A stretch of DNA of 64,000 nucleotides from Bacteroidetes bacterium RIFCSPLOWO2_12_FULL_37_12 (GTDB lineage Bacteria > Bacteroidota > Bacteroidia > 2-12-FULL-37-12): assembly GCA_001769655.1 (NCBI GenBank), contig MEPC01000042.1, positions 93,125-157,124 of the forward strand, in the 5' to 3' direction. Within the stretch, counting starts at the first letter, position 1; each line of letters starts with the position of its first letter. Both the position numbers and the translations under genes were made by a program. This document shows positions 3,300-63,307 of this stretch, one piece after another. The notes under the pieces were generated by a model that saw nothing but the letters and a program-made list of their open reading frames with translations, was not told the origin of the DNA and searched no databases.

Positions 3300-3395
3300 A
3301 TAAATAACATATAACATATAACACAAAATGAATAATAAAAAGTGAGGGGAAACCTTTAACATTATTCATTTTTTGTTATATGTTATATGTTTTTA
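3300..3395. repeat. Intergenic palindromic element, copy A: 31-bp inverted arms AACATATAACATATAACAcAAAATGAATAAT with a 24-nt loop.
   Basis: Arms at 3306-3336 and 3361-3391 are reverse complements with one mismatch. Related copies lie at 4775-4868 and 55890-56045. Confidence 0.6.
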
Positions 3396-7980: not shown

Positions 7981-8092
7981 TGTGGTAATAAAGTAGTAAT
8001 ACAGTTGTAATACGATTGTAATACCATTGTTTTACCACTGTATTACCATTGTATTACTATTGTATTCACATTGTATTACTTTTGCATAACTA
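7981..8092. repeat. Array of about 10 units of GTAATAC/GTATTAC heptamers at 11-bp spacing. The orientation flips mid-array.
   Basis: GTAATAA agta GTAATAC agtt GTAATAC gatt GTAATAC catt GTTTTAC cact GTATTAC catt GTATTAC tatt GTATTCA catt GTATTAC tttt GCATAAC. The last units contain the TACTTTTG -7 box, 18 nt upstream of the lysC ATG at 8103. Confidence 0.7.
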
Positions 8093-8102
8093 TTATAATC
8101 CC

Positions 8103-9377
8103 ATGCCCCCCCTACTCATCTTTAAATTCGGCGGTGTTTCTGTTCAGGATGCCTCCGCAATTAAAAACACTACATCTATTATAAAAAAATTTGCTGTAGC
8201 CAACCGGCTCCTTCTCGTAATCTCTGCTATGGGCAAAATGACAAATGCATTGGAAGAATTGCATAAACAATATTTTACAAAAAAGAATTTCACTGCCGAA
8301 TTTGAAAAGGTTAAAGCATATCATCGTTCTATTGTGAAAGAACTTTTTTCAGAAACAGTGCATCCGGTTTACGATGAGTTAGAAAATCTTTTTGTAGAAA
8401 TGGAGTGGCACCTCGAAGAAGAACCCTCGAACGATTATGATTTGAGTTATGATCAATTAGTGTCATTCGGTGAACTTATTTCTACTAAAATAATTTCTCA
8501 ATACTTAAACAAAACAGCTGTAAATACCAAATGGGTGGATGCGAGAAGTTTTATTCAGACCGACAATACCTACCGGGATGCGCGTGTCAACTGGGCATTA
8601 ACAGAAAAATTAATTGTCCGTGATATTCCGGGTTTTCTCGAAAAACAAGTGGTATTAACGCAAGGATTTATTGGTGGCACTTCCGAAAATTTTACAACTA
8701 CCCTTGGGAGAGAGGGATCCGATTTTACTGCGGCTATTTTTGCCAAATGCCTGAAAGCCGATTCCATCAATATCTGGAAGGATGTCAGAGGAATACTGAA
8801 TGCCGACCCTAAACTATTTCCCGGAACCGTAAAATACGAACATCTTTCTTACCATCAGATGATAGAAATGGCTTATTATGGGGCTTCTGTAATTCACCCG
8901 AAAACTATAAAGCCATTAGTGGATGCACACATACCCCTTCATGTGAAATGTTTTAAAACACCGGATGAAAAAGGGACGATAGTAGATGAAACGCCGGAAG
9001 AATACATAACACCTGCCATCATTTTGAAAAAAAAGCAATGCCTGTTTTCCCTCTCAGCGAAGGATTATTCGTTTATCACCGAAAAAAATCTAAGCCATAT
9101 TTTTGACACCGCTTTTCGATTCAAATTAAAAATTAATCTGATGCAGAATTCAGCAATCTCTTTCTCAGTTTGTGTGGACGGCCAAACCGGCAAACACAAG
9201 GACTTTTATAATTTTCTCCACAAGGACTTTCACGTTTTATTCAACAAGGATTTGGAATTGCTTACGATTATGCACTACCATGATGATTTGATAAACAAAC
9301 ATACTCATGGAAAAGAAATTTTACTGGTGCAAAAAACGAGGCATACGTTTCAGGCGGTGACGAAGGTGGGGGTATAA
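8103..9377 (+). CDS. lysC: Aspartate kinase
   Basis: LLIFKFGGVSV..LLVISAMGKMTNAL is the amino-acid kinase N-terminus, and C-terminal ACT-like regions follow. The conserved start is the Met at 8103 rather than the track start at 8049. Confidence 0.8.
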   Translation: MPPLLIFKFGGVSVQDASAIKNTTSIIKKFAVANRLLLVISAMGKMTNALEELHKQYFTKKNFTAEFEKVKAYHRSIVKELFSETVHPVYDELENLFVEMEWHLEEEPSNDYDLSYDQLVSFGELISTKIISQYLNKTAVNTKWVDARSFIQTDNTYRDARVNWALTEKLIVRDIPGFLEKQVVLTQGFIGGTSENFTTTLGREGSDFTAAIFAKCLKADSINIWKDVRGILNADPKLFPGTVKYEHLSYHQMIEMAYYGASVIHPKTIKPLVDAHIPLHVKCFKTPDEKGTIVDETPEEYITPAIILKKKQCLFSLSAKDYSFITEKNLSHIFDTAFRFKLKINLMQNSAISFSVCVDGQTGKHKDFYNFLHKDFHVLFNKDLELLTIMHYHDDLINKHTHGKEILLVQKTRHTFQAVTKVGV

Positions 9378-9484
9378 GGTATAGGGATATAGGGATATAG
9401 GGTATAAAGGTATAAAGGTATAAAGGTATAAAGGTATAAAGGTATAGGACGCTCTTTTATACCCTATACCCCTATACCCTTTTA
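9371..9484. terminator. Bidirectional hairpin terminator built from (GGTATAAA)5 and GGTATAGGG tandem units, lying exactly between convergent stop codons
   Basis: ggtatagggatatagggatataggg(tataaagg)5tatagg-acgctctt-ttataccctatacccctataccc. The arms are reverse-complementary. The lysC stop is at 9375-9377 and the GNAT stop at 9482-9484. Confidence 0.55.
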
Positions 9485-9928: not shown

Positions 9929-9960
9929 TGGCTATTGGTCATTCGGCATTGGGTATTGAT

Positions 9961-10734
9961 TCACCTCCCTTTAAATTCCGGCTTTCTTTTCCCGATAAAC
10001 GCCTTCATCCCTTCTTTCTGGTCTTCACTGGAAAACGTTAAATAGAAATTTTTTCGTTCAAACTGCAACCCTTCTTCCAATGAGGTCTCAAACGCTCTCA
10101 GTACCGACTCTTTCGCAAGCCGAATTGCCACCGGTGACATGGAGGCAATTTCAGATGCTACATTCAATGCTTCTTCGAGATATAATTCCACCGGAACAAT
10201 TTTATTAATCAGCCCGGCATCCAATGCCTCTTTTGCGCTTATCATTTTTCCTGTAAGCACCATTTCCATCGCTTTTGCCTTTCCCACCGCTCTTGTCAAT
10301 CGTTGAGTGCCACCCGCTCCGGGCATGACCCCTATTTTTATTTCCGGCTGACCAAATCTGGCGGTTTCAGAGGCAATAATCATATCACATAACATAGTAA
10401 GTTCACAACCGCCACCCAATGCAAACCCCGAAACAGCGGCTATCAGCGGTTTTTTTGTTTTCTTAATCTGGTCCCAGGTACTGAACTGGTCAACTTTCAA
10501 CATGTCAATGGCATTTTTATCCGCCATTTCTTTTATATCGGCGCCTGCCGCAAATGCTTTTTCGTTTCCTGTAATAACTATTACTTTTACTGCATCATCT
10601 CCGTCAAGATCTTTCAAGGTATCACGCAGTTCACCCATCAATTGAAGATTCAGCGCATTGAGTTCGTTGGGGCGATTTAAGCGGATGAGCGCTATGAAAG
10701 GACGGGCAGATTTTTCAATGATGAGGTGCTCCAT
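9961..10734 (-). CDS. Enoyl-CoA hydratase/isomerase (crotonase family)
   Basis: Contains GADIKEMAD and AAVSGFALGGGCELTMLCDMIIAS..FGQPEIKIGVMPGAGGTQRL. Confidence 0.8.
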   Translation of the reverse strand: MEHLIIEKSARPFIALIRLNRPNELNALNLQLMGELRDTLKDLDGDDAVKVIVITGNEKAFAAGADIKEMADKNAIDMLKVDQFSTWDQIKKTKKPLIAAVSGFALGGGCELTMLCDMIIASETARFGQPEIKIGVMPGAGGTQRLTRAVGKAKAMEMVLTGKMISAKEALDAGLINKIVPVELYLEEALNVASEIASMSPVAIRLAKESVLRAFETSLEEGLQFERKNFYLTFSSEDQKEGMKAFIGKRKPEFKGR

Positions 10735-19118: not shown

Positions 19119-19124
19119 TAATTA

Positions 19125-19190
19125 GAAATTAGGCATTAGTCATTGGTCATTAGAAATTACAACCAATGACTAATGACTAATGACCAATTT
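19125..19190. terminator. Hairpin built from CATTAGT/CATTGGT heptamer repeats, downstream of the AsmA-family gene
   Basis: aggcattagtcattggtcatta-gaaattacaa-ccaatgactaatgactaatgacca, followed by attttg. Confidence 0.45.
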
Positions 19191-42858: not shown

Positions 42859-45800
42859 GTGACACCCTCCGTTTCCACTCATTGCCCCTACATTGGTTTA
42901 CGTCCATACCGTGAAGAAGAATCCCTTTATTTTAAAGGACGCGATTCCCACATCCTGGAAATCCTGGAAATGATTAAGCAGGATAATTTCATCATGATGA
43001 CAGGGGCATCGGGCGACGGGAAAACATCGTTGGTAAAAGCAGGAGTCATTCCTGCATTGAAAGCCGGATTAATCAATACGCAATTCAATAATTGGATCGT
43101 TGCAAGTTTCCGTCCCGAAAGAAATCCGCTGGGTAACTTTGCCAAAAGTTTATCCAACGCTCTCGGATATCAGACCCCTGAGAGCGTGGAATCATTAATG
43201 GGGTATGGTTTTTCCTCCCTTTGCAACCTCTACAAAAATTCGCCTTTCTATGTAGATGAAAAAAGTGATTCATTTCTTTCACTAACTCCCGAAGAAAAAA
43301 AGAAAAAACAACATCAAGCCGCCAATCTGTTGATTTTTACCGACCAGTTTGAAGAGTTTTTTACAAACGTGGAAAATTATACCGAAGGAATTCCATCCGT
43401 AAATTCGCAAACCGTTATAAATCTATTGCTTGAAACCAAAAAACTTGCAAAGGACGAAAAACTTCCCATTTATATTCTGTGTACCATGCGATCCGACTAT
43501 ATGGGATCTTGTGCCGCTTTTCCCGGATTGCCCGAATTAATTCATCGTAATCATTACTTCGTTCCCCGTCTTAAAAGAAACGAATTGATGAAAGCCATTA
43601 AGGAGCCCTGCCTGCTTACCGGTTATTCCATTACCGATCGCTTAGTGGAGCGATTGATTTTTGATTTGAAAGAATGTATAGAAATTCTTCCCGTTTTGCA
43701 ACATGTCTTGTATCAAATCTGGCATATTGCTTCCTTAGAAAACGTACCCATGGACCTGATTCATTATGCCATGGCAGGTGGAATGCCCAAAGTGGAGCTC
43801 CCTCAGGAAGATCAAGTCACTTTTAAAAATTGGTTCGCAAAACTTCCGGAATACAAACGTCTGCTGTTTGAGAATCCATCCATTGGAAATGTGCTGGATG
43901 CCCATGCTTCAGAATTATTTGAAATCGCACATAAAAGAACTTCTACTCAAGCGCCGGTGGGCGAACAACTTTCCAAACATATTATCCGGGTTGCTTTTAC
44001 TTGTCTTACCCGCATGGATAATGGAAAAGCTGTGAGAAACCGTGTGACGATCAAAAATATTGCTGAAATGGTGGATTTGCCGGGGGTTGACCACAGAACC
44101 ATTGGCAGAGTTCTGAATAACTTCAGAGAACAAGGCAACACATTTATTCAGCCATTTATTTATGATTTGGATCAAACCATCGTTGAAGTGTCACTCAAGG
44201 AGGAATTAGTAAAACCGGATATCATACTCGACATCACGCATGAAGCATTAATCAGAAATTGGAGTTTGCTGCGAGATTGGGTGGACAAGGAACAGGAAAG
44301 CGTAAAAATATATATAGACCTTGAAAACCAGCTTGACCGTTGGGTAAAGAACAGTAAAAAGAAAGAATACTTGCTTGGGGAAGGAACATTGGAATATTTT
44401 TATCAATGGTTTCAAAACCAAAACCCTAATGCCGGTTGGATAAAAAGATACATGCTTGAAAGCAGAATAAAACTTTCAAAAGAAAAAGAAAAGTCCGGAG
44501 AAAACACCGAACTCACATCCACTAACGGAAATCATTCAACTCCCGATCTCACTAATACGCTTAACAACAAGGAAGAGCAGGATAGAATGAAATCAAAACT
44601 TGCCCGCTTGCGGTTACAAAACATCCGTGAGTTCCTGAGCCATAGCCGTAAAAATATTTCTTTCAAAAAAAATTTTACCAGGAGCACCATTCTTCTCATT
44701 TCATTTTTGCTGGTACTGTCCATCATTGGATTTATCAATGCCAATAAAGAGAGAACCAATGCCATTGAATCAAATAAAGTTTCAAGATCGAATGAACTTT
44801 CTTACAGGTCTTTTCTTACTGTAAATAATGACCCTACCATGGCGTTCCGTCTGGCAGAAGCCGCATATAACGTATATCCCGGGACGTATGCAAAGCAAGC
44901 TGTCATGGAATCGTTTATGAATCCTCCTTTTTACAAATTAATTTCAGGCCATTCGCATTATGTCACTAGTGGAATGTTTTCTACTGACGGACGATATTTA
45001 GTAACCGCATCCAATGATAAAAGCGTACGCCTTTGGGATATTTTTGGCAAACCTCAGGCGGTTATGATGCATGATGATATTGTAAAATCAGTACAATTTT
45101 CTCCCGATAATAAAAAAGTGCTTTCTTGCTCAGCCGACCGTACCATACGTCTATGGGATTTAAAAGGAAATGAAGTTCAAAAACTGACTGCTCATAACGG
45201 AGTGATTAATTCTGCGCAGTTTTCACCCGCAGGCAATTTTATTATTTCTACTTCTGATGACAGTACTGCCATCATCTGGAATATTATTAAACCCTTACGG
45301 ATACTCAAAGGTCATAAAGGTCCCGTTTTATCTGCATCTTTTTCACCAAATGCCCGGCAAATTGTTACCACTTCTTCTGATAACAATCTTATGCTATGGA
45401 CTTTTGACGGAGTTCTTCTTAAAACCTTAGAAGGACATACTGCGCCGGTATTGGGTGCCACTTTTTCAAACGATGGGAAATATATTTTAAGTTATTCCGT
45501 TGATTTTACAGCTAAATTATGGGGCATGAAAGGAAATCTGGTGGCTGATTTGAAAGGACATACCGCACCCTTAACCGGTGCCATTTTTTCGCCGGATGGA
45601 AGCAAAATTTTTACTTATTCAGATGATTTTTCTGGGATTCTCTGGGATTTTTCGGACAAACCCGGCAATGTATATGTACAATTACTTAATTTTTTTCAGG
45701 GGCATAACGGGAAAATTGTTTCTGCTTCTTTTGCAACCGATGGTGAAACTATTGCCACTGCTTCAGAAGACAATACCTGCCGGATTTGGAGCCAGAACGG

Positions 45801-47025
45801 AAACACGCTACACATATTAAAAGCAAATGACTTGTTCATGCTGGCTTTATTTACTCCCAATAGCCAGCGGGTTCTAACTACACATAACAGCGGCGCAATT
45901 AGAATATGGGATTTAACTCAAAAAGAAACCCGTGTGCTACGTAACCATGTAGAATATGTGTGGGATGTCACTGTATCCCAAAGCGGTAAATACATCGTTA
46001 CCTCTTCGTGGGATAATAATGCATGTTTATGGAATAACGCTGGTGAACTTTTAAAAACACTGGTAGGACACACCGATAAAGTATATTACTCTCTGATAAC
46101 TCCCGATGAACAATTTATCATCACTACTTCTTATGATAAAACCATACGGTTATGGAAAATGGATGGGCAATGCCTTCAGACATTATCCGGTCATACCGGA
46201 AATATTTATCAACCCCATATAACAGATGATGGAAAATTTCTCATCACTCCCAGTGCGGATAAAACAGCCATTGTCTGGCAGTTTATCAAAGAAGGTGACA
46301 CTAAATTATTGAAAAAATATGCCACACTCAGAGGGCACATTGGTAGAATTCGGGTTGCCCGTTTTTCTAATGACGGCCGTTTCATACTTACTGCCAGCGG
46401 CGATAACACTGCCCGCTTATGGGACCGTGACGGAAATCTGGTGCGAAAACTAACTGGTCACACTGCTGAGGTTTATACCTGTTGTTTTTCAAAGGATGGC
46501 GCCTATATTATTACGGGTTCATCGGATGGCACTGCACGAATCTATGATGGAATGGGAAATTTTCTGCAAATTCTTGCCGGTCATTCTGAAGGAATAAGCG
46601 ATGTGGTATTTATGCAGAATCAAAAATACATTGTGACTGTTTCTTCAGACCGCACAGGAATTATCTGGAACTTGCTCGGTAAAGATATTGCTCATTTGAC
46701 AGGTCATACAGATTTAATCAATACGGTGGAAGTGTCACCCGATGGGAAATACTTATTGACTTCCTCTGATGATCTTACAGCCCGTGTCTGGGATTTGGAT
46801 GGAAATGAAATCAATGTATTGAAAGGGCACAACGGACAGGTGCAGGAAGCCCATTTTTTCCCCGATGGAAAATCTGTCATCACTTGCTCAAAGGATGGCA
46901 CAGCACGCATCTGGCCTGTTTTTATAGAGGATGTATTCCGGAAAATCAATGATGAAAAATTCAGAGGTGATGTATGGAGTCCTAATCGTGCAGAAAGGAA
47001 GATATTTGGAATGGGGGTGAATTGA
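42859..47025 (+). CDS. STAND-class P-loop NTPase (NACHT/nSTAND-like) with one predicted internal TM helix and at least 14 C-terminal WD40 repeats
   Basis: N-terminal CPYIGLRPYREEESLYFKGRD, Walker A GASGDGKTS and Walker B IFTDQFEEFF. A TM segment STILLISFLLVLSIIGFI lies near aa 620. Repeats of the form GH..V....FSPDG..I.T.S.D.T.R.WD follow. Confidence 0.8.
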   Translation: MTPSVSTHCPYIGLRPYREEESLYFKGRDSHILEILEMIKQDNFIMMTGASGDGKTSLVKAGVIPALKAGLINTQFNNWIVASFRPERNPLGNFAKSLSNALGYQTPESVESLMGYGFSSLCNLYKNSPFYVDEKSDSFLSLTPEEKKKKQHQAANLLIFTDQFEEFFTNVENYTEGIPSVNSQTVINLLLETKKLAKDEKLPIYILCTMRSDYMGSCAAFPGLPELIHRNHYFVPRLKRNELMKAIKEPCLLTGYSITDRLVERLIFDLKECIEILPVLQHVLYQIWHIASLENVPMDLIHYAMAGGMPKVELPQEDQVTFKNWFAKLPEYKRLLFENPSIGNVLDAHASELFEIAHKRTSTQAPVGEQLSKHIIRVAFTCLTRMDNGKAVRNRVTIKNIAEMVDLPGVDHRTIGRVLNNFREQGNTFIQPFIYDLDQTIVEVSLKEELVKPDIILDITHEALIRNWSLLRDWVDKEQESVKIYIDLENQLDRWVKNSKKKEYLLGEGTLEYFYQWFQNQNPNAGWIKRYMLESRIKLSKEKEKSGENTELTSTNGNHSTPDLTNTLNNKEEQDRMKSKLARLRLQNIREFLSHSRKNISFKKNFTRSTILLISFLLVLSIIGFINANKERTNAIESNKVSRSNELSYRSFLTVNNDPTMAFRLAEAAYNVYPGTYAKQAVMESFMNPPFYKLISGHSHYVTSGMFSTDGRYLVTASNDKSVRLWDIFGKPQAVMMHDDIVKSVQFSPDNKKVLSCSADRTIRLWDLKGNEVQKLTAHNGVINSAQFSPAGNFIISTSDDSTAIIWNIIKPLRILKGHKGPVLSASFSPNARQIVTTSSDNNLMLWTFDGVLLKTLEGHTAPVLGATFSNDGKYILSYSVDFTAKLWGMKGNLVADLKGHTAPLTGAIFSPDGSKIFTYSDDFSGILWDFSDKPGNVYVQLLNFFQGHNGKIVSASFATDGETIATASEDNTCRIWSQNGNTLHILKANDLFMLALFTPNSQRVLTTHNSGAIRIWDLTQKETRVLRNHVEYVWDVTVSQSGKYIVTSSWDNNACLWNNAGELLKTLVGHTDKVYYSLITPDEQFIITTSYDKTIRLWKMDGQCLQTLSGHTGNIYQPHITDDGKFLITPSADKTAIVWQFIKEGDTKLLKKYATLRGHIGRIRVARFSNDGRFILTASGDNTARLWDRDGNLVRKLTGHTAEVYTCCFSKDGAYIITGSSDGTARIYDGMGNFLQILAGHSEGISDVVFMQNQKYIVTVSSDRTGIIWNLLGKDIAHLTGHTDLINTVEVSPDGKYLLTSSDDLTARVWDLDGNEINVLKGHNGQVQEAHFFPDGKSVITCSKDGTARIWPVFIEDVFRKINDEKFRGDVWSPNRAERKIFGMGVN

Positions 47026-51286: not shown

Positions 51287-51361
51287 TTATTTATAATAGA
51301 ACTCTTGCGTAAGATATAAAAATTAAGACACAAAGAAACTAAGAAATACTAAGAAAAAACT

Positions 51362-53491
51362 TCAATCAAAAAATCTCCAATTCACTCCGAGTTGCATCGT
51401 TCTCGGATACGCCGGGTACCAGGGGGATGCAAAATATCCCTTAGTTACAATGCCCTGATTTAGATGGGTAATTTTAAAAAATACGAGCGCATCTCCTATG
51501 CGGAAATTTAAAAAGAAATCTACAGACGTATATGCCCGCATGGGAAATTTATTTTGCAGGTAAAACTGTTGTATCACAGGGTTATAGGAATAAGCATTCC
51601 ATGAATCCGTAGTCCGTAAATCAAATCCGGTTTGCATAGGCATCTTTCTTCCGAAAACAGTATTTTCATAATACAACCGGTTGAAAATGTAAAAACCGGG
51701 GAGACGGATTAATCCGGTGTCACTTAAAAAGTTCTGCTGAAAATAATTCTCAAAACCGAAATGTGAAGGATAAAAATTGAACCGCAAATTAAAATAAAAA
51801 AATGAATGAGTGGAAAGCGTTTGAATGGGTTTACTTTGGGTGTCGTAATAAATCAGGTTTTCAATCATGATTTTTCCAATCACAGGATAAATTTTCCATG
51901 CCTTGTTCTTTGGGATCCACTGATATCCTGCCTCTAATTGCCGGGTGGTCATGGAATTAAAAATATTTTTCCATTGTATAAAATCCCCCTGATACTCTTT
52001 TTGCAATTCATTTCCAAAATTTTTATTTTGTATAAATCGAAAAAGGAAATCGTGCAAACCGGCTGATGTTTTAATATAATTTTTCCCTTCATCATAACTT
52101 TTCAAAAAATGCCACCCATCTATCGTAAACTTCCAATTTCTTGTATTTAGAATGGAATAAAATCCGGTTACCAGCGATGACGTTGGAGAAGTTAAAGTGC
52201 CATTCTCATTGCTGGAATTATATTGCTGTGATTTTAAATAGAAATCAGCATGAAAACAGTGGTTGGAATCCGTTTTATTATTGCCGGGTAATGCAAACCC
52301 AACGGTTTGTTCTAAAAAATTCCAACGGATATTTTCATACAAAGCGAAAGAAAATAATGAATCCGTGAACGCTGAGTAAAAAGCCGGCTCGGGCGCATCG
52401 TCTGTAAATTTATACGTGCGTTGATTTCCTTTAAACCGATTATAAAAACGGAATTTTTTGGGTCTTAACCGTTCACGGTTACTTTTAACAAAGTGGAGTG
52501 AATCTGAAAAATATTTCTTATATATTTTACAAATACTGTCTTTTTTTTCAGGAGTATTATAGGTGGCTGAATCTTTTAACCATTTCCGGTTTGAATAAAA
52601 ATCAATAGTGTTTCTATCATCAACTTCCCAATCCGACAACGTGTCACTTGTTCTTCTTCCAAAATCGTAAAATTGATAAATCTGCCATTCCCTTCTGTAA
52701 TGATGGGTTTGTGCTGTGTATAAATTTACTCCCTCAATATCTCCGTCAAAAAATTCATCCTTGGAAATGGTTGTATCCTGAAATACCCCGCCGGTCTCTT
52801 TTATTTTATGGTCGGTATATGAAAATAATACAAGCAAGTGATAGCGGTACCCGGGACTATGAAACCAGGAAAATAAATCCAGCCCTTTAAAATCCAACTG
52901 ATTATCGTGTAGCGCAGTTGAACCAATCTTTTTATCCGATGCCATTCGCTTGTACTCAGCGCCCATGTTCCATGTACGGGTTATATTGCGTGCGAAAGTA
53001 GCAGAAAAAATCTGTTCATCTTTAGTGCCAATCATGTAAAATAAATCCGCGTAAGGGGACTTCGAATCAAAATATTTTCTTTTTTTGGGATTTGTATAAT
53101 ATGCATTAAAATTATTAAATCCCGCATCGGGGGTTGATGAAGAGTCAATCGAGAAATACAATGGATAATAAGCCGTTCCAAGATTGCCAAGATGCTGGGA
53201 AGTCATTTCTGCTTTCTGCACAAAATTGTAATCGTGAATACCCTGTAAGCTGGTATCTGCCGGATGTTTAGTGCTAATACCGTAACGCAAATCCTCTTCG
53301 GTTATGTATTGCGTTGTTTTAGTACCAAAAATATTTTTAGTGGAATCGTCAACGACCTGCGCTGTACCGGTAAAATAGTGCAGAGGGCAATTTATAACAA
53401 GAAGTATTAAGAAAGTTCTTACGATAAGAAATCTCCCTTGTAAAACCAATAAAGGAATCCGGATTTGCTGGAAAGCCAAGTGTTTGCTCAT
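51362..53491 (-). CDS. Bacteroidota 'putative porin'-family outer-membrane protein
   Basis: About 710 aa, rich in Tyr, Phe and Asn with beta-strand periodicity. The Met at 53491 follows a TTG at 53497. Confidence 0.45.
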   Translation of the reverse strand: MSKHLAFQQIRIPLLVLQGRFLIVRTFLILLVINCPLHYFTGTAQVVDDSTKNIFGTKTTQYITEEDLRYGISTKHPADTSLQGIHDYNFVQKAEMTSQHLGNLGTAYYPLYFSIDSSSTPDAGFNNFNAYYTNPKKRKYFDSKSPYADLFYMIGTKDEQIFSATFARNITRTWNMGAEYKRMASDKKIGSTALHDNQLDFKGLDLFSWFHSPGYRYHLLVLFSYTDHKIKETGGVFQDTTISKDEFFDGDIEGVNLYTAQTHHYRREWQIYQFYDFGRRTSDTLSDWEVDDRNTIDFYSNRKWLKDSATYNTPEKKDSICKIYKKYFSDSLHFVKSNRERLRPKKFRFYNRFKGNQRTYKFTDDAPEPAFYSAFTDSLFSFALYENIRWNFLEQTVGFALPGNNKTDSNHCFHADFYLKSQQYNSSNENGTLTSPTSSLVTGFYSILNTRNWKFTIDGWHFLKSYDEGKNYIKTSAGLHDFLFRFIQNKNFGNELQKEYQGDFIQWKNIFNSMTTRQLEAGYQWIPKNKAWKIYPVIGKIMIENLIYYDTQSKPIQTLSTHSFFYFNLRFNFYPSHFGFENYFQQNFLSDTGLIRLPGFYIFNRLYYENTVFGRKMPMQTGFDLRTTDSWNAYSYNPVIQQFYLQNKFPMRAYTSVDFFLNFRIGDALVFFKITHLNQGIVTKGYFASPWYPAYPRTMQLGVNWRFFD

Positions 53492-53578
53492 TTTCAACTT
53501 TAACTCAAAAACATATTAGTATTTTTTCGTAAATATATTATAGCTACTCCGGTGTGTATTATTTCTCGCAAATATTAT

Positions 53579-53680
53579 GTCACGCAAAGACGCAAAGTAC
53601 GCAGAGTATTAAGTACGCAGAGTAAAAAAATCATAAATGATTTTTTCTTTGCCTCTTTGCCTCTTTGCGGCTTTGCGTGA
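53579..53680. repeat. Complex hairpin built from (CGCAAAG)2 and (CTTTGCCT)2 tandem arms around a central perfect palindrome AAAAAAATCAT-AA-ATGATTTTTTT
   Basis: The outer 18-bp arms tcacgcaaagacgcaaag and ctttgcggctttgcgtga are reverse-complementary, and the + strand is followed by gaacttttttt. Confidence 0.5.
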
Positions 53681-53775
53681 GAACTTTTTTTATGCTGAAT
53701 AGTTACAATATTTTCAAATTTCTTCTTTTTCCTTTCTTCTTTCTTCTCTCTTCTTTCTCCTTTTTCCTTTCTCCT

Positions 53776-53912
53776 TTTTCCTTTTTCCTTTTTCCTTTTT
53801 CCTTTTTCCTTTTTCCTTTTTCCTTTTTCCTTTTTCCTTTTTCCTTTTTCCTTTTTCCTTTTTCCTTTTTCCTTTTTCCTTTTTCCTTTTTCCTTTTTCC
53901 TTTTTCCTTTTT
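53776..53912. repeat. Heptanucleotide microsatellite (CCTTTTT)n, about 19 perfect copies, flanked by degenerate CT-rich repeats spanning 53700-53960
   Basis: The tandem is directly visible. It produces the spurious 'KGKRKKE' and 'FLFPFSF' ORFs on the two strands. It lies between the 3' end of gene 53948-55606 and the promoter region of the porin-like gene. Confidence 0.9.
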
Positions 53913-53947
53913 CCCTTTCTCTCCTTCCCCCTTTTCCCATTCTCCCC

Positions 53948-55606
53948 CTACTCCACATTCACCTCAATATTCTCAATCTCCCAATTCGCTTTCAGTGGCA
54001 TAATATTTTTATAATAAAATATTTTTTCAGGTAAAATGTTTTTGAAAATATCACCCCTGTCCCACCTTTCGTTATTGTTCCTGTCTTCCAGCAAACGAAA
54101 TACGTACTTACCGGGTTTTAGCCATTCAAAACGGAATGTGTGATTATTTTTTAATTGACGCAGGACTCTCCCTTTATCGTCGAGCAGGTCCAGTGTGAAA
54201 TTTTTCCAGATGGTATTTACAGTGCCACTTAATGCTCCGTAACCGGCATCGTTATCTTTGTAATATATAAAAGGTTCTTTCCGGTTTTTCAAACCGTAAA
54301 CATCCGAAAACATACTATCCGGAATACTAATCCGCAGATTTTTAGTAAAGGGTATATTCCTCTTAATGCTTAATTCGTTTCCGTATTTATTCCAGGCATA
54401 CTCATCTTCTTTATTTAACAGAATAGTTTTTACAGAATCCACCATAAATTCCAACAATGGAATTGTTTTTCCAATTACCGGTACCCGAAATAAAAATTTT
54501 ATCTGGTTGGAATTCATGATTAGAGTGCCATTGGAAGGAAAAACCGAAATAACAAAAGGGACAGAGTCCTTTTTAGCATCCGGTTTTACGCCTATGAATA
54601 ATGTGTCCTGCATTTTGTTGTATGAGGAATCAATGGCTGTAACGTGTAATGAAACACTATCCTTCTCAATAGTTGGAAATGCCACAAGATTTTTTCCGTC
54701 ATACAGCGGGATAAAAGGAACAGGAGATGAAGCGCTGTCATTCAACTGAAAAAGAGAAATTGAATCAACTCCCTCACTGAACTGCAAGGTGATTTTATTT
54801 TTTTCATCCGCTTGCGATTTCAAAATATAGGGAGGAAGGTGGTCTTCTTTGTATAAATGAAGATTCAATTTTATAGTATCCTGTCTAATGGAAATCAACG
54901 AATCGGTGAATGCCACCCGTTCAGAACTAATATCACAGGTATAATTTTTATTTTTATCATCAAACGCTATTACATTAAATTGCCCTTGTGGCAGGTTTTT
55001 TAACTGAAATTCTCCGGTTTTAGTACTTCGGGTAAGAAAAAGAGGAGTTTTTTTAACGAAATGAACAGTGTCACTGTCCTTCGCAGGAATGAGTCCTACT
55101 GTAATTCCATGCACCGGATTTCCGCTAAGAACCTCTGAAATCATTCCCTTTACAATGCCGGTATCAATAATTTCCCCGGTGCTGAAAGTGAGGGTTAACT
55201 CATCGGGAGGATTTTTTTCGGTATTGTCCACAATCGAATTTTCAAATTGAAAACGGTACGTAGTGTTTGAAAGTAGTGTATCCTTCAGCGTAATAAAAAA
55301 TTTTTTCTTTTTAACTTTGGTTTCCACCGGATATTTTAAAGGAGGGGATACTATCCAATTCGTGCTTAAATTATTGGTGTTCACATATTCATCAAATTCA
55401 AGTTCGAGAGTGTTATCTCTATAATTTCGCTGTTCATCGGTTGGCTTTGAGTGAACTAACTTAGGTGGAGTTTCATCTTTGGGACCTCCGGTCGGTGGTA
55501 CGATATTGGCGCAGGATGTGAGAAGGAATAAAAGGAGATAGATTAGGCGATTGGCTGAATGGTTAAATGGTTGAATGGTTATATGGTTAAATGGAAAAAT
55601 CATCAC
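53948..55606 (-). CDS. Hypothetical lipoprotein, probably Ig-like/beta-sandwich-rich
   Basis: 552 aa with the lipobox LLTSCAN. No catalytic motifs recognised. Confidence 0.4.
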   Translation of the reverse strand: MMIFPFNHITIQPFNHSANRLIYLLLFLLTSCANIVPPTGGPKDETPPKLVHSKPTDEQRNYRDNTLELEFDEYVNTNNLSTNWIVSPPLKYPVETKVKKKKFFITLKDTLLSNTTYRFQFENSIVDNTEKNPPDELTLTFSTGEIIDTGIVKGMISEVLSGNPVHGITVGLIPAKDSDTVHFVKKTPLFLTRSTKTGEFQLKNLPQGQFNVIAFDDKNKNYTCDISSERVAFTDSLISIRQDTIKLNLHLYKEDHLPPYILKSQADEKNKITLQFSEGVDSISLFQLNDSASSPVPFIPLYDGKNLVAFPTIEKDSVSLHVTAIDSSYNKMQDTLFIGVKPDAKKDSVPFVISVFPSNGTLIMNSNQIKFLFRVPVIGKTIPLLEFMVDSVKTILLNKEDEYAWNKYGNELSIKRNIPFTKNLRISIPDSMFSDVYGLKNRKEPFIYYKDNDAGYGALSGTVNTIWKNFTLDLLDDKGRVLRQLKNNHTFRFEWLKPGKYVFRLLEDRNNNERWDRGDIFKNILPEKIFYYKNIMPLKANWEIENIEVNVE

Positions 55607-63236: not shown

Positions 63237-63307
63237 GATTTACGATTTTTGATTTACGATTTACGATTTTCTATTTTCTATTTTCTATCTTCTATTTTCT
63301 ATCTTTC
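63237..63307. repeat. Tandem heptamers (GATTTAC)3-4 then (TATTTTC/TATCTTC)6 then C9, abutting the LpxL-like start codon
   Basis: gatttacgatttttgatttacgatttacgattttctattttctattttctatcttctattttctatctttccccccccc. It begins 4 nt from the ATG at 63232. Confidence 0.8.

Follow-up and report, generated by a model that had tools for sequence, protein, structure and literature searches.

A length-variable GGAAAAA microsatellite in the spacer separating lipoprotein and porin genes of an environmental bacterium of the Bacteroidota

The 64,000-nucleotide (nt) stretch of DNA analyzed here, referred to below as the window (positions 93,125 to 157,124 of contig MEPC01000042.1, assembly GCA_001769655.1 of Bacteroidetes bacterium RIFCSPLOWO2_12_FULL_37_12), contains a perfect 143-bp tandem array of the heptanucleotide GGAAAAA between a lipoprotein gene and a gene for an outer-membrane porin. 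We interpret this array as an expanded, slippage-prone microsatellite that occupies the 3' untranslated region (3'UTR) of the lipoprotein gene and the intergenic spacer, not the promoter of the porin gene, and that probably mediates little or no switching of the porin. We put the probability of this reading at roughly 0.6. The evidence that carries it consists of the anatomy of the locus, the length differences of the tract among otherwise near-identical assemblies and the geometry of the porin upstream region.

The array and the features that surround it are listed here in the 5' to 3' order of the minus strand, from which both flanking genes are read.

53948..55603, minus strand: upstream gene encoding a lipoprotein of 551 amino acids (aa) that has the domains Big_5 (PF13205) and DUF2141 plus a lipobox-like LLTSC motif
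53719..53938, minus strand: uninterrupted homopurine tract of 220 nt, homopyrimidine on the plus strand
53772..53914, minus strand: perfect heptanucleotide microsatellite within that tract, (GGAAAAA)x20 + GGA, 143 bp, read as (CCTTTTT)n on the plus strand
53719..53771, minus strand: eight degenerate, in-register heptamers on the porin-proximal side of the perfect core
53580..53680, minus strand: imperfect hairpin of 101 nt, with arms made of short tandem units, (CGCAAAG)-like versus (CTTTGCC)-like
51362..53491, minus strand: downstream gene encoding a 709-aa outer-membrane protein of the Porin_10 family (PF14121, E-value 2e-82)

Twenty copies of CCTTTTT follow one another without a mismatch at 53773-53912, and period-7 identity is perfect over 53772-53914, that is, 143 bp or 20.4 units. 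Tandem Repeats Finder delineates a somewhat longer period-7 array (53725-53918; 27.7 copies, 95% matches, score 318), by far the strongest in the window. A first-pass annotation made from the sequence alone had counted about 19 copies from position 53776; the perfect heptamer array is real, with the start having been placed 3-4 nt late and the count having come out one unit short. The CT-rich extension to about 260 bp that the same annotation described matches the 266 bp at 53700-53965, which are 95% pyrimidine on the plus strand. On the minus strand, the 20-unit core is followed by GGAGAAA, GGAAAAA, GGAGAAA, GAAGAGA, GAAGAAA, GAAGAAA, GGAAAAA and GAAGAAA, and these eight heptamers look like a decayed, porin-proximal edge of the array. 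The unique flanks that bracket the tract are GGGGGAAGGAGAGAAAG and AGAAAGGAAAAAGGAGAAAG.

The period-7 run is no product of chance. Its 143 bp compare to a mean of 15 bp and a maximum of 18 bp for the longest such run in 100 shuffles of the window, and the lag-7 match probability of 0.269 translates into about 1e-77 per start position for a run of this length. The homopurine tract is likewise set apart by its 220 nt, the runner-up among purine or pyrimidine runs in the window being 23 nt long. It holds 27 GGA and 24 AGGA motifs, and in the predicted RNA fold it is entirely unpaired. A perfect mirror repeat covers 142 nt (53773-53914), and the tract accordingly combines the homopurine/homopyrimidine strand composition and the mirror symmetry that characterize H-DNA-forming sequences. 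A search against Rfam yielded no match at gathering score, only microRNA-hairpin noise at 18 bits, compared to cut-offs of 64-70.

On the minus strand, the lipoprotein stop codon is succeeded by a 9-nt spacer, the 220-nt tract, a 38-nt AT-rich spacer, the 101-nt hairpin, an 88-nt AT-rich leader and the porin ATG. From the TAG stop (53950-53948), it is 9 nt to the homopurine tract and 33 nt to the perfect run, which ends 280 nt upstream of the porin start codon (53491-53489). These coordinates agree with the initial placement of the array as intergenic, in the 3' region of the lipoprotein gene and upstream of the porin gene, although the last of these descriptions holds only loosely: seen in its immediate context, the tract forms the 3' trailer of the lipoprotein gene. 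The two genes belong to a series of co-oriented minus-strand genes that runs from pheS through an open reading frame (ORF) of 84 aa, the lipoprotein gene and the porin gene to an ORF of 365 aa. Both neighbors of the tract, the Porin_10 protein and the Big_5 lipoprotein, are envelope products, so that the array sits beside genes of the surface or envelope type that is typical of contingency loci.

Comparison of assemblies provides the second line of evidence. Exact-protein look-ups identified the same organism in a Rifle aquifer metagenome-assembled genome (MAG), GCA_001769355.1 (MEOZ01000123.1); in the ENA copy of this scaffold, labeled 'ANAN16-1', presumably after Anantharaman et al. 2016; in the MEGAHIT re-assemblies ERZ4903125 and ERZ27254759; and in Logan unitigs from SRR2090161, SRR2090162 and SRR3990169. 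Over 16.3 kb, the sole difference between MEOZ01000123.1 and the window is a 14-bp (2-unit) deletion in the tract, which leaves 129 bp or 18.4 units. The 54.9-kb contig of ERZ4903125, with 20 kb aligned, differs from the window in two places only, an indel in the tract and a patch in a WD40 gene; its tract is 35 bp (5 units) shorter and measures 108 bp or 15.4 units. In the ENA copy of the Rifle scaffold, 100 N lie inside the tract (9265-9364), and in the NCBI MAG copy the tract is closed at 129 bp (9944-10072). The contigs of ERZ27254759 break inside the tract, one of them covering its first 72 bp and another its last 105 bp or so, and the Logan unitigs extend no farther than 30 bp into it. 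Among the other short arrays covered by the comparator contigs, all of them identical to those of the window, are a perfect period-8 run of 46 bp at 9401-9446 and the arrays at 7985-8079, 47081, 55558 and 63237-63307. The tract is thus the one unstable, or unassemblable, site of the region. The first-pass annotation had anticipated hypermutability and length heterogeneity, and versions with 15.4, 18.4 and 20.4 units do occur in otherwise near-identical assemblies; hypermutability of the tract is plausible, but this variation may in part be an assembly effect.

The second difference from ERZ4903125 is a patch of about 90 bp (46684-46772) with clustered substitutions and small indels in a WD40/nSTAND gene (42859-47025). 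The product of this gene, 1388 aa in the window, is split into 89 and 1287 aa in the ERZ4903125 contig. Recombination between WD40 repeats or mis-assembly could have produced the patch.

The third line of evidence comes from the porin upstream region. Promoters in this organism appear to be of the Bacteroidetes type: the Bacteroidetes -7 box, TAnnTTTG, shows 3.8-fold enrichment in the 150 nt preceding the genes of the window, for the most part 12-38 nt from the start codon. Between 53400 and 54600, the minus strand contains no exact TAnnTTTG, and a scan for sigma-70-like promoters detected none on the minus strand; among the co-oriented genes from pheS to the 365-aa ORF, the exact box is present only upstream of pheS. 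The sole near-matches are the following candidate sites, none of which is exact.

53506..53577, minus strand: AT-rich candidate porin promoter region, containing the near-match -7 boxes
53577-53569, minus strand: near-match box TAATATTTG
53537-53530, minus strand: near-match box TATATTTA
53513-53506, minus strand: near-match box TGTTTTTG

Measured from the porin ATG, these boxes lie at -86, -46 and -22; each is downstream of the hairpin, with about 195-260 bp between the boxes and the tract. The tract therefore does not occupy the position expected of a promoter- or 5'-type contingency locus: 280 nt separate it from the ATG, the hairpin intervenes, and there is no promoter consensus in or next to it. 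On account of this position, we classify it as a length-variable intergenic/3'UTR microsatellite. It had been proposed in the first pass that each unit change, 7 bp or about two-thirds of a helical turn, would rotate an upstream element relative to the porin promoter. The arithmetic is correct, but the mechanism appears weak at this distance and across the hairpin, and any element to be rotated would sit more than 420 bp upstream, within the lipoprotein coding region, where a partner element is unlikely.

The hairpin between the tract and the porin start codon is probably a 3'-end or terminator structure of the lipoprotein transcript. The 156-nt segment 53545-53700 has a predicted minimum free energy (MFE) of -41.8 kcal/mol (z -4.3). 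A dispersed element resembling repetitive extragenic palindromes or miniature inverted-repeat transposable elements was rejected, the hairpin being unique in the window. Comparable hairpins directly follow stop codons at 3304-3391, 7985-8079, 9371-9480 and 19120-19188, with MFE values from -29 to -49 kcal/mol. Their arms consist of a tandem unit and its complement, for instance, (GGTATAAA)n versus (TATACCC)n, with a different unit at each site, and they look like terminators built by tandem duplication. Because such hairpins abut other stop codons, the microsatellite seems to have been inserted, or to have expanded, between the stop codon and the hairpin that belongs to it. Short tandem arrays in general (period 6-12, at least 2.9 copies) are concentrated in the intergenic DNA of the window, which accounts for 10.5% of its length and harbors 21 of the 23 arrays.

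Arrays of the same unit are found well beyond this genome. Among the JGI metagenomes, 67 unrelated contigs, with GC contents from 0.23 to 0.74, carry (GGAAAAA)n with at least 7 units, and the array is where many of them end. A co-oriented gene precedes the array in at least five bacterial or archaeal contexts, with 0-5 nt between its stop codon and the first unit; in two further contigs, the array lies 103 nt after the stop in one and within C-terminal coding sequence in the other. The neighboring genes are unrelated and include those for M28 peptidases, a BamA-like protein, hydroxymethylglutaryl (HMG)-CoA synthase and a MoxR-like ATPase, and given this diversity, an association of the metagenome arrays with porins or lipoproteins was rejected. 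The array is in the sense orientation in 14 of the 20 classifiable cases (14:6), a bias that is not significant. Taken together, this distribution points to (GGAAAAA)n being a recurrent slippage product that is seeded in purine-rich trailers, and not a lineage-specific regulatory element.

From these observations, we infer the following course of events. The array would have expanded between the lipoprotein stop codon and the 3' hairpin of that gene, as an extreme case of an apparently organism-wide habit in which 7-11-nt tandem duplications gather in intergenic DNA, often right after stop codons. The perfect 20-unit core would be the actively slipping part, and the eight degenerate units on the porin side would be older copies decayed by point mutation; this combination of a pure core and a decayed flank is suggestive of an array that is old but still slipping at its center. 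Copy number would shift in whole 7-bp units through slipped-strand mispairing, so that no other site of the locus would vary as much. Any effect of tract length would most likely be graded and would act on transcription from the lipoprotein gene towards the hairpin and the porin gene, since H-DNA or R-loops can arise where the non-template strand is a long homopurine run.

Several known systems resemble the tract in part. The closest functional analogue is the simple sequence repeat (SSR) of Haemophilus influenzae hmw1A/hmw2A, (TGAAAGA)n, of which 13-38 heptamer copies located 69-106 bp upstream modulate expression (Dawid et al. 1999, summarized in PMC2651432). The two arrays share a 7-nt, A-rich, purine-biased unit, a copy number within the range of 13-38 and a location upstream of a surface-protein gene; copy number varies between strains in hmw and differs between assemblies here. 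They differ in that the hmw repeats belong to the promoter region, whereas the tract lies far from the porin ATG, right after the preceding stop codon and behind a hairpin, and the phylum and the promoter type are different as well. In Mycoplasma gallisepticum, a (GAA)n repeat about 40 nt upstream of the transcription start of vlhA genes has been reported to permit activity only at exactly 12 copies (PMC6258824). The likeness to vlhA consists in a homopurine/homopyrimidine tandem repeat upstream of a surface-type gene, in length variation that is probably due to slippage here as well and in a suspected mechanism involving non-B-DNA or DNA physics. Unlike the vlhA repeat, which has a 3-nt unit, occurs in a multigene family and is close to the start site, the tract is confined to one locus, remote from any candidate start.

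The STRR heptamers of cyanobacteria are intergenic tandem 7-nt repeats. The closest descriptive analogue of the tract is the class of long intergenic heptamer arrays exemplified by TAACTGA, which reach 43 copies and have been described in Beggiatoaceae, Cyanobacteria and five Bacteroidetes, for example, Gramella forsetii (PMC4679880). Genomes with TAACTGA arrays carry other heptamer arrays too, contigs end in the arrays, and their function is unknown (PMC4679880). The tract shares with TAACTGA and STRR the tandem 7-nt units, the intergenic location and the assembly breaks. In contrast, its unit is a different one, and those families are dispersed, with one unit at many loci, whereas the window contains a single GGAAAAA array and its other arrays use other units. 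The BOGUAY arrays lie a few nt upstream of start codons, unlike the tract, which abuts a stop codon and is 280 nt from the porin ATG. Finally, H-DNA-forming sequences have been shown to block transcription in vitro and to cause instability (PMC4538819, PMC11667243). Like (GAA.TTC)n repeats of this kind, the tract has pure purine and pyrimidine strands, perfect mirror symmetry, a presumably length-dependent instability and, with the purine strand as the non-template strand, a predicted potential to block transcription; it differs in being more A-rich (5 A : 2 G).

The window derives from an uncultivated groundwater bacterium of a deep-branching Bacteroidota lineage, and GldN is present. The best match of PheS among GTDB species genomes has 65-68% identity, and none of the PheS relatives has the lipoprotein-porin pair. 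The best porin homologue is 33% identical, and the porin query returned no match in the GTDB species genomes. A conserved lipoprotein-porin operon was rejected: two Porin_10 homologues sit in unrelated neighborhoods without a Big_5 lipoprotein partner. An exact search with the tract flanks gave 0 matches in the JGI metagenomes, and the organism name and the accessions gave no match in the literature.

A number of points weigh against our interpretation of the tract as a slippage-prone 3'UTR microsatellite, and those that concern its length also feed an alternative, namely, that the differences are purely an artefact of assembly. In that case, the tract would have one stable natural length, probably longer than a read, of which each assembler or gap-closer produced a different truncated version. 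All the resolved lengths (108, 129 and 143 bp) are shorter than a 150-nt read, so that assembly error may play a part in the differences, and the assemblies may stem from the same or overlapping read sets and hence may not represent independent strains. The 143 bp of the window fall within the 141-147 bp that would be expected from a de Bruijn assembler with k=141 collapsing a longer tract, and would be the minimal k=141 output for any longer run with a length congruent to 3 mod 7. One Rifle scaffold carries 100 N at the tract in ENA and is closed at 129 bp in NCBI. Read literally, this gap would imply a tract of about 165 bp; since scaffold gaps elsewhere in the ENA assembly are 10 or 25 N, the 100 N are probably an estimate. 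Contigs break inside the tract, and the 20-unit allele of the window is absent from recorded gene calls; exact matches to the 63-, 121- and 127-aa ORF products across the repeat were found neither in the protein collection nor in the gene-position index. However, the 108-bp tract of the k=141 MEGAHIT contig is shorter than k and so should be read-supported, and a 15-unit version may, as the grouping of records suggests, recur in up to five contigs. Moreover, long perfect SSRs are intrinsically unstable. We regard a pure artefact as rather unlikely, albeit a possibility to be taken seriously. A further point concerns the hairpin: no U-tract follows the stem at 53580-53680, and a consensus scan calls no intrinsic terminator there. 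A 220-nt pure purine tract beside two envelope genes is unusual and may reflect selection; the porin gene, with no recognizable promoter of its own, may depend on read-through across the tract, so that length could matter more than we propose; and there are no close relatives in the searched collections for testing whether the tract is conserved.

There are also regulatory alternatives. In one of them, which we consider unlikely, the tract would be a contingency locus or expression rheostat in which unit changes alter the distance or the helical phase between an upstream element and the porin promoter, so that porin transcription is switched or graded, as in hmw1A/hmw2A or nadA. In its favor, the SSR is long and perfect, its unit length is not divisible by 3, the gene downstream encodes an outer-membrane protein, and unit number differs among otherwise identical assemblies; hmw1A/hmw2A and vlhA offer precedents. 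The geometry speaks against it, given the distance of the tract from the ATG and from the sole -7-like boxes, the hairpin in between, the lack of an exact TAnnTTTG or a sigma-70-like site on the minus strand in the scans described above, and the need for a partner element inside the lipoprotein ORF; besides, phasing arguments carry little force with about 140-220 bp of repeat. To our knowledge, SSR-based phase variation is not established in Bacteroidota, where the known cases are invertible promoters. A second alternative, likewise improbable, invokes a length-dependent transcription barrier or insulator: H-DNA, an R-loop of purine RNA and pyrimidine DNA, or both would halt RNA polymerase ahead of the hairpin and determine the read-through to the porin gene, with slippage tuning the level. 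The 142-nt mirror repeat, the 220 nt of pure purine on the non-template strand, the predicted lack of structure in the RNA, the co-orientation of the genes from pheS to the 365-aa ORF and the missing porin promoter are all compatible with such a barrier, as is the transcription block caused by H-DNA-forming sequences in vitro (PMC4538819, PMC11667243). Against it, the adjacency of the lipoprotein and porin genes is not conserved in other Bacteroidota, and the strong hairpin after the tract could end transcription alone. AT-rich triplexes are, in addition, less stable at neutral pH. It would be farther-fetched still for the 24-27 or so (A)GGA motifs to act as an RNA element in the lipoprotein 3'UTR that binds or titrates an RNA-binding protein of the CsrA-like, S1 or cold-shock type. 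The motifs are single-stranded in the predicted fold, the metagenome arrays lean weakly towards the sense orientation, and heptamer arrays such as TAACTGA have been proposed as protein-binding sites (PMC4679880); nevertheless, Rfam holds no match, the orientation bias lacks significance, no binding protein was identified, CsrA is not known to be typical of Bacteroidota, and the arrays lie beside unrelated genes. The broader proposition that the homopurine mirror repeat is a selected, slippage-tuned rheostat, acting through H-DNA, R-loops or a protein-binding (A)GGA array to set length-dependent transcription into a promoterless porin gene, also strikes us as a long shot. We give almost no credence to the tract encoding a lysine-rich (KEKGKRK)n protein, even though (GGAAAAA)n is open in every frame and ORFs are called across it (32-76 aa in other assemblies, 121/127 aa in the window). 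Such a coding repeat was rejected on the grounds that length differences of 14 and 35 bp shift the frame and yield ORFs of 63, 76 and 121 aa; furthermore, the ORFs run through the hairpin, Pfam gave no match, the exact products are absent from the protein collection, and neither peptide evidence nor a conserved, frame-preserving homologue was found.

The interpretation as a length-variable 3'UTR microsatellite has consequences that depend on how much of the variation is genuine. If the length variation is real, the tract would evolve faster than any other site in a groundwater population that is otherwise clonal, and its setting beside two envelope genes, typical of contingency loci, would make it a candidate for SSR-driven variation outside host-associated pathogens and within a phylum not known to have established switches of this kind. 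Should the tract turn out to be a selected rheostat, it would represent an SSR-based contingency mechanism in an environmental lineage of Bacteroidota, a phylum otherwise known for invertible-promoter switches; as a merely neutral 3'UTR microsatellite, it would be ordinary. On the practical side, long SSRs break or distort short-read MAG assemblies, as witnessed here by N gaps, contig ends and three 'resolved' lengths, and copy numbers from such assemblies should not be taken at face value. Long intergenic heptamer arrays in Bacteroidetes were already known (PMC4679880); what is new is the length-variable GGAAAAA array at the lipoprotein-porin locus.

Several further arrays in the window were recorded along the way. 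Next to the lipoprotein gene, a (AATGGTTA)x4.6 array at 55552-55594 covers the point where the 84-aa ORF meets the annotated lipoprotein start. The N-terminal 'MIFPFNHITIQPFNHS' of the lipoprotein may be derived from this repeat, and the true start of the protein is uncertain; the array is identical across all assemblies. On the other side of the locus, a (AAACTAAG)x4.4 array lies within the 75 bp (51287-51361) that separate the porin gene from the 365-aa ORF downstream of it. Two arrays with a period of 120 bp, at 750-1071 and 2439-2841 near the start of the window, have about 3 copies each with about 71% identity and similar consensus sequences, and are probably coding repeats, possibly TPR-like.

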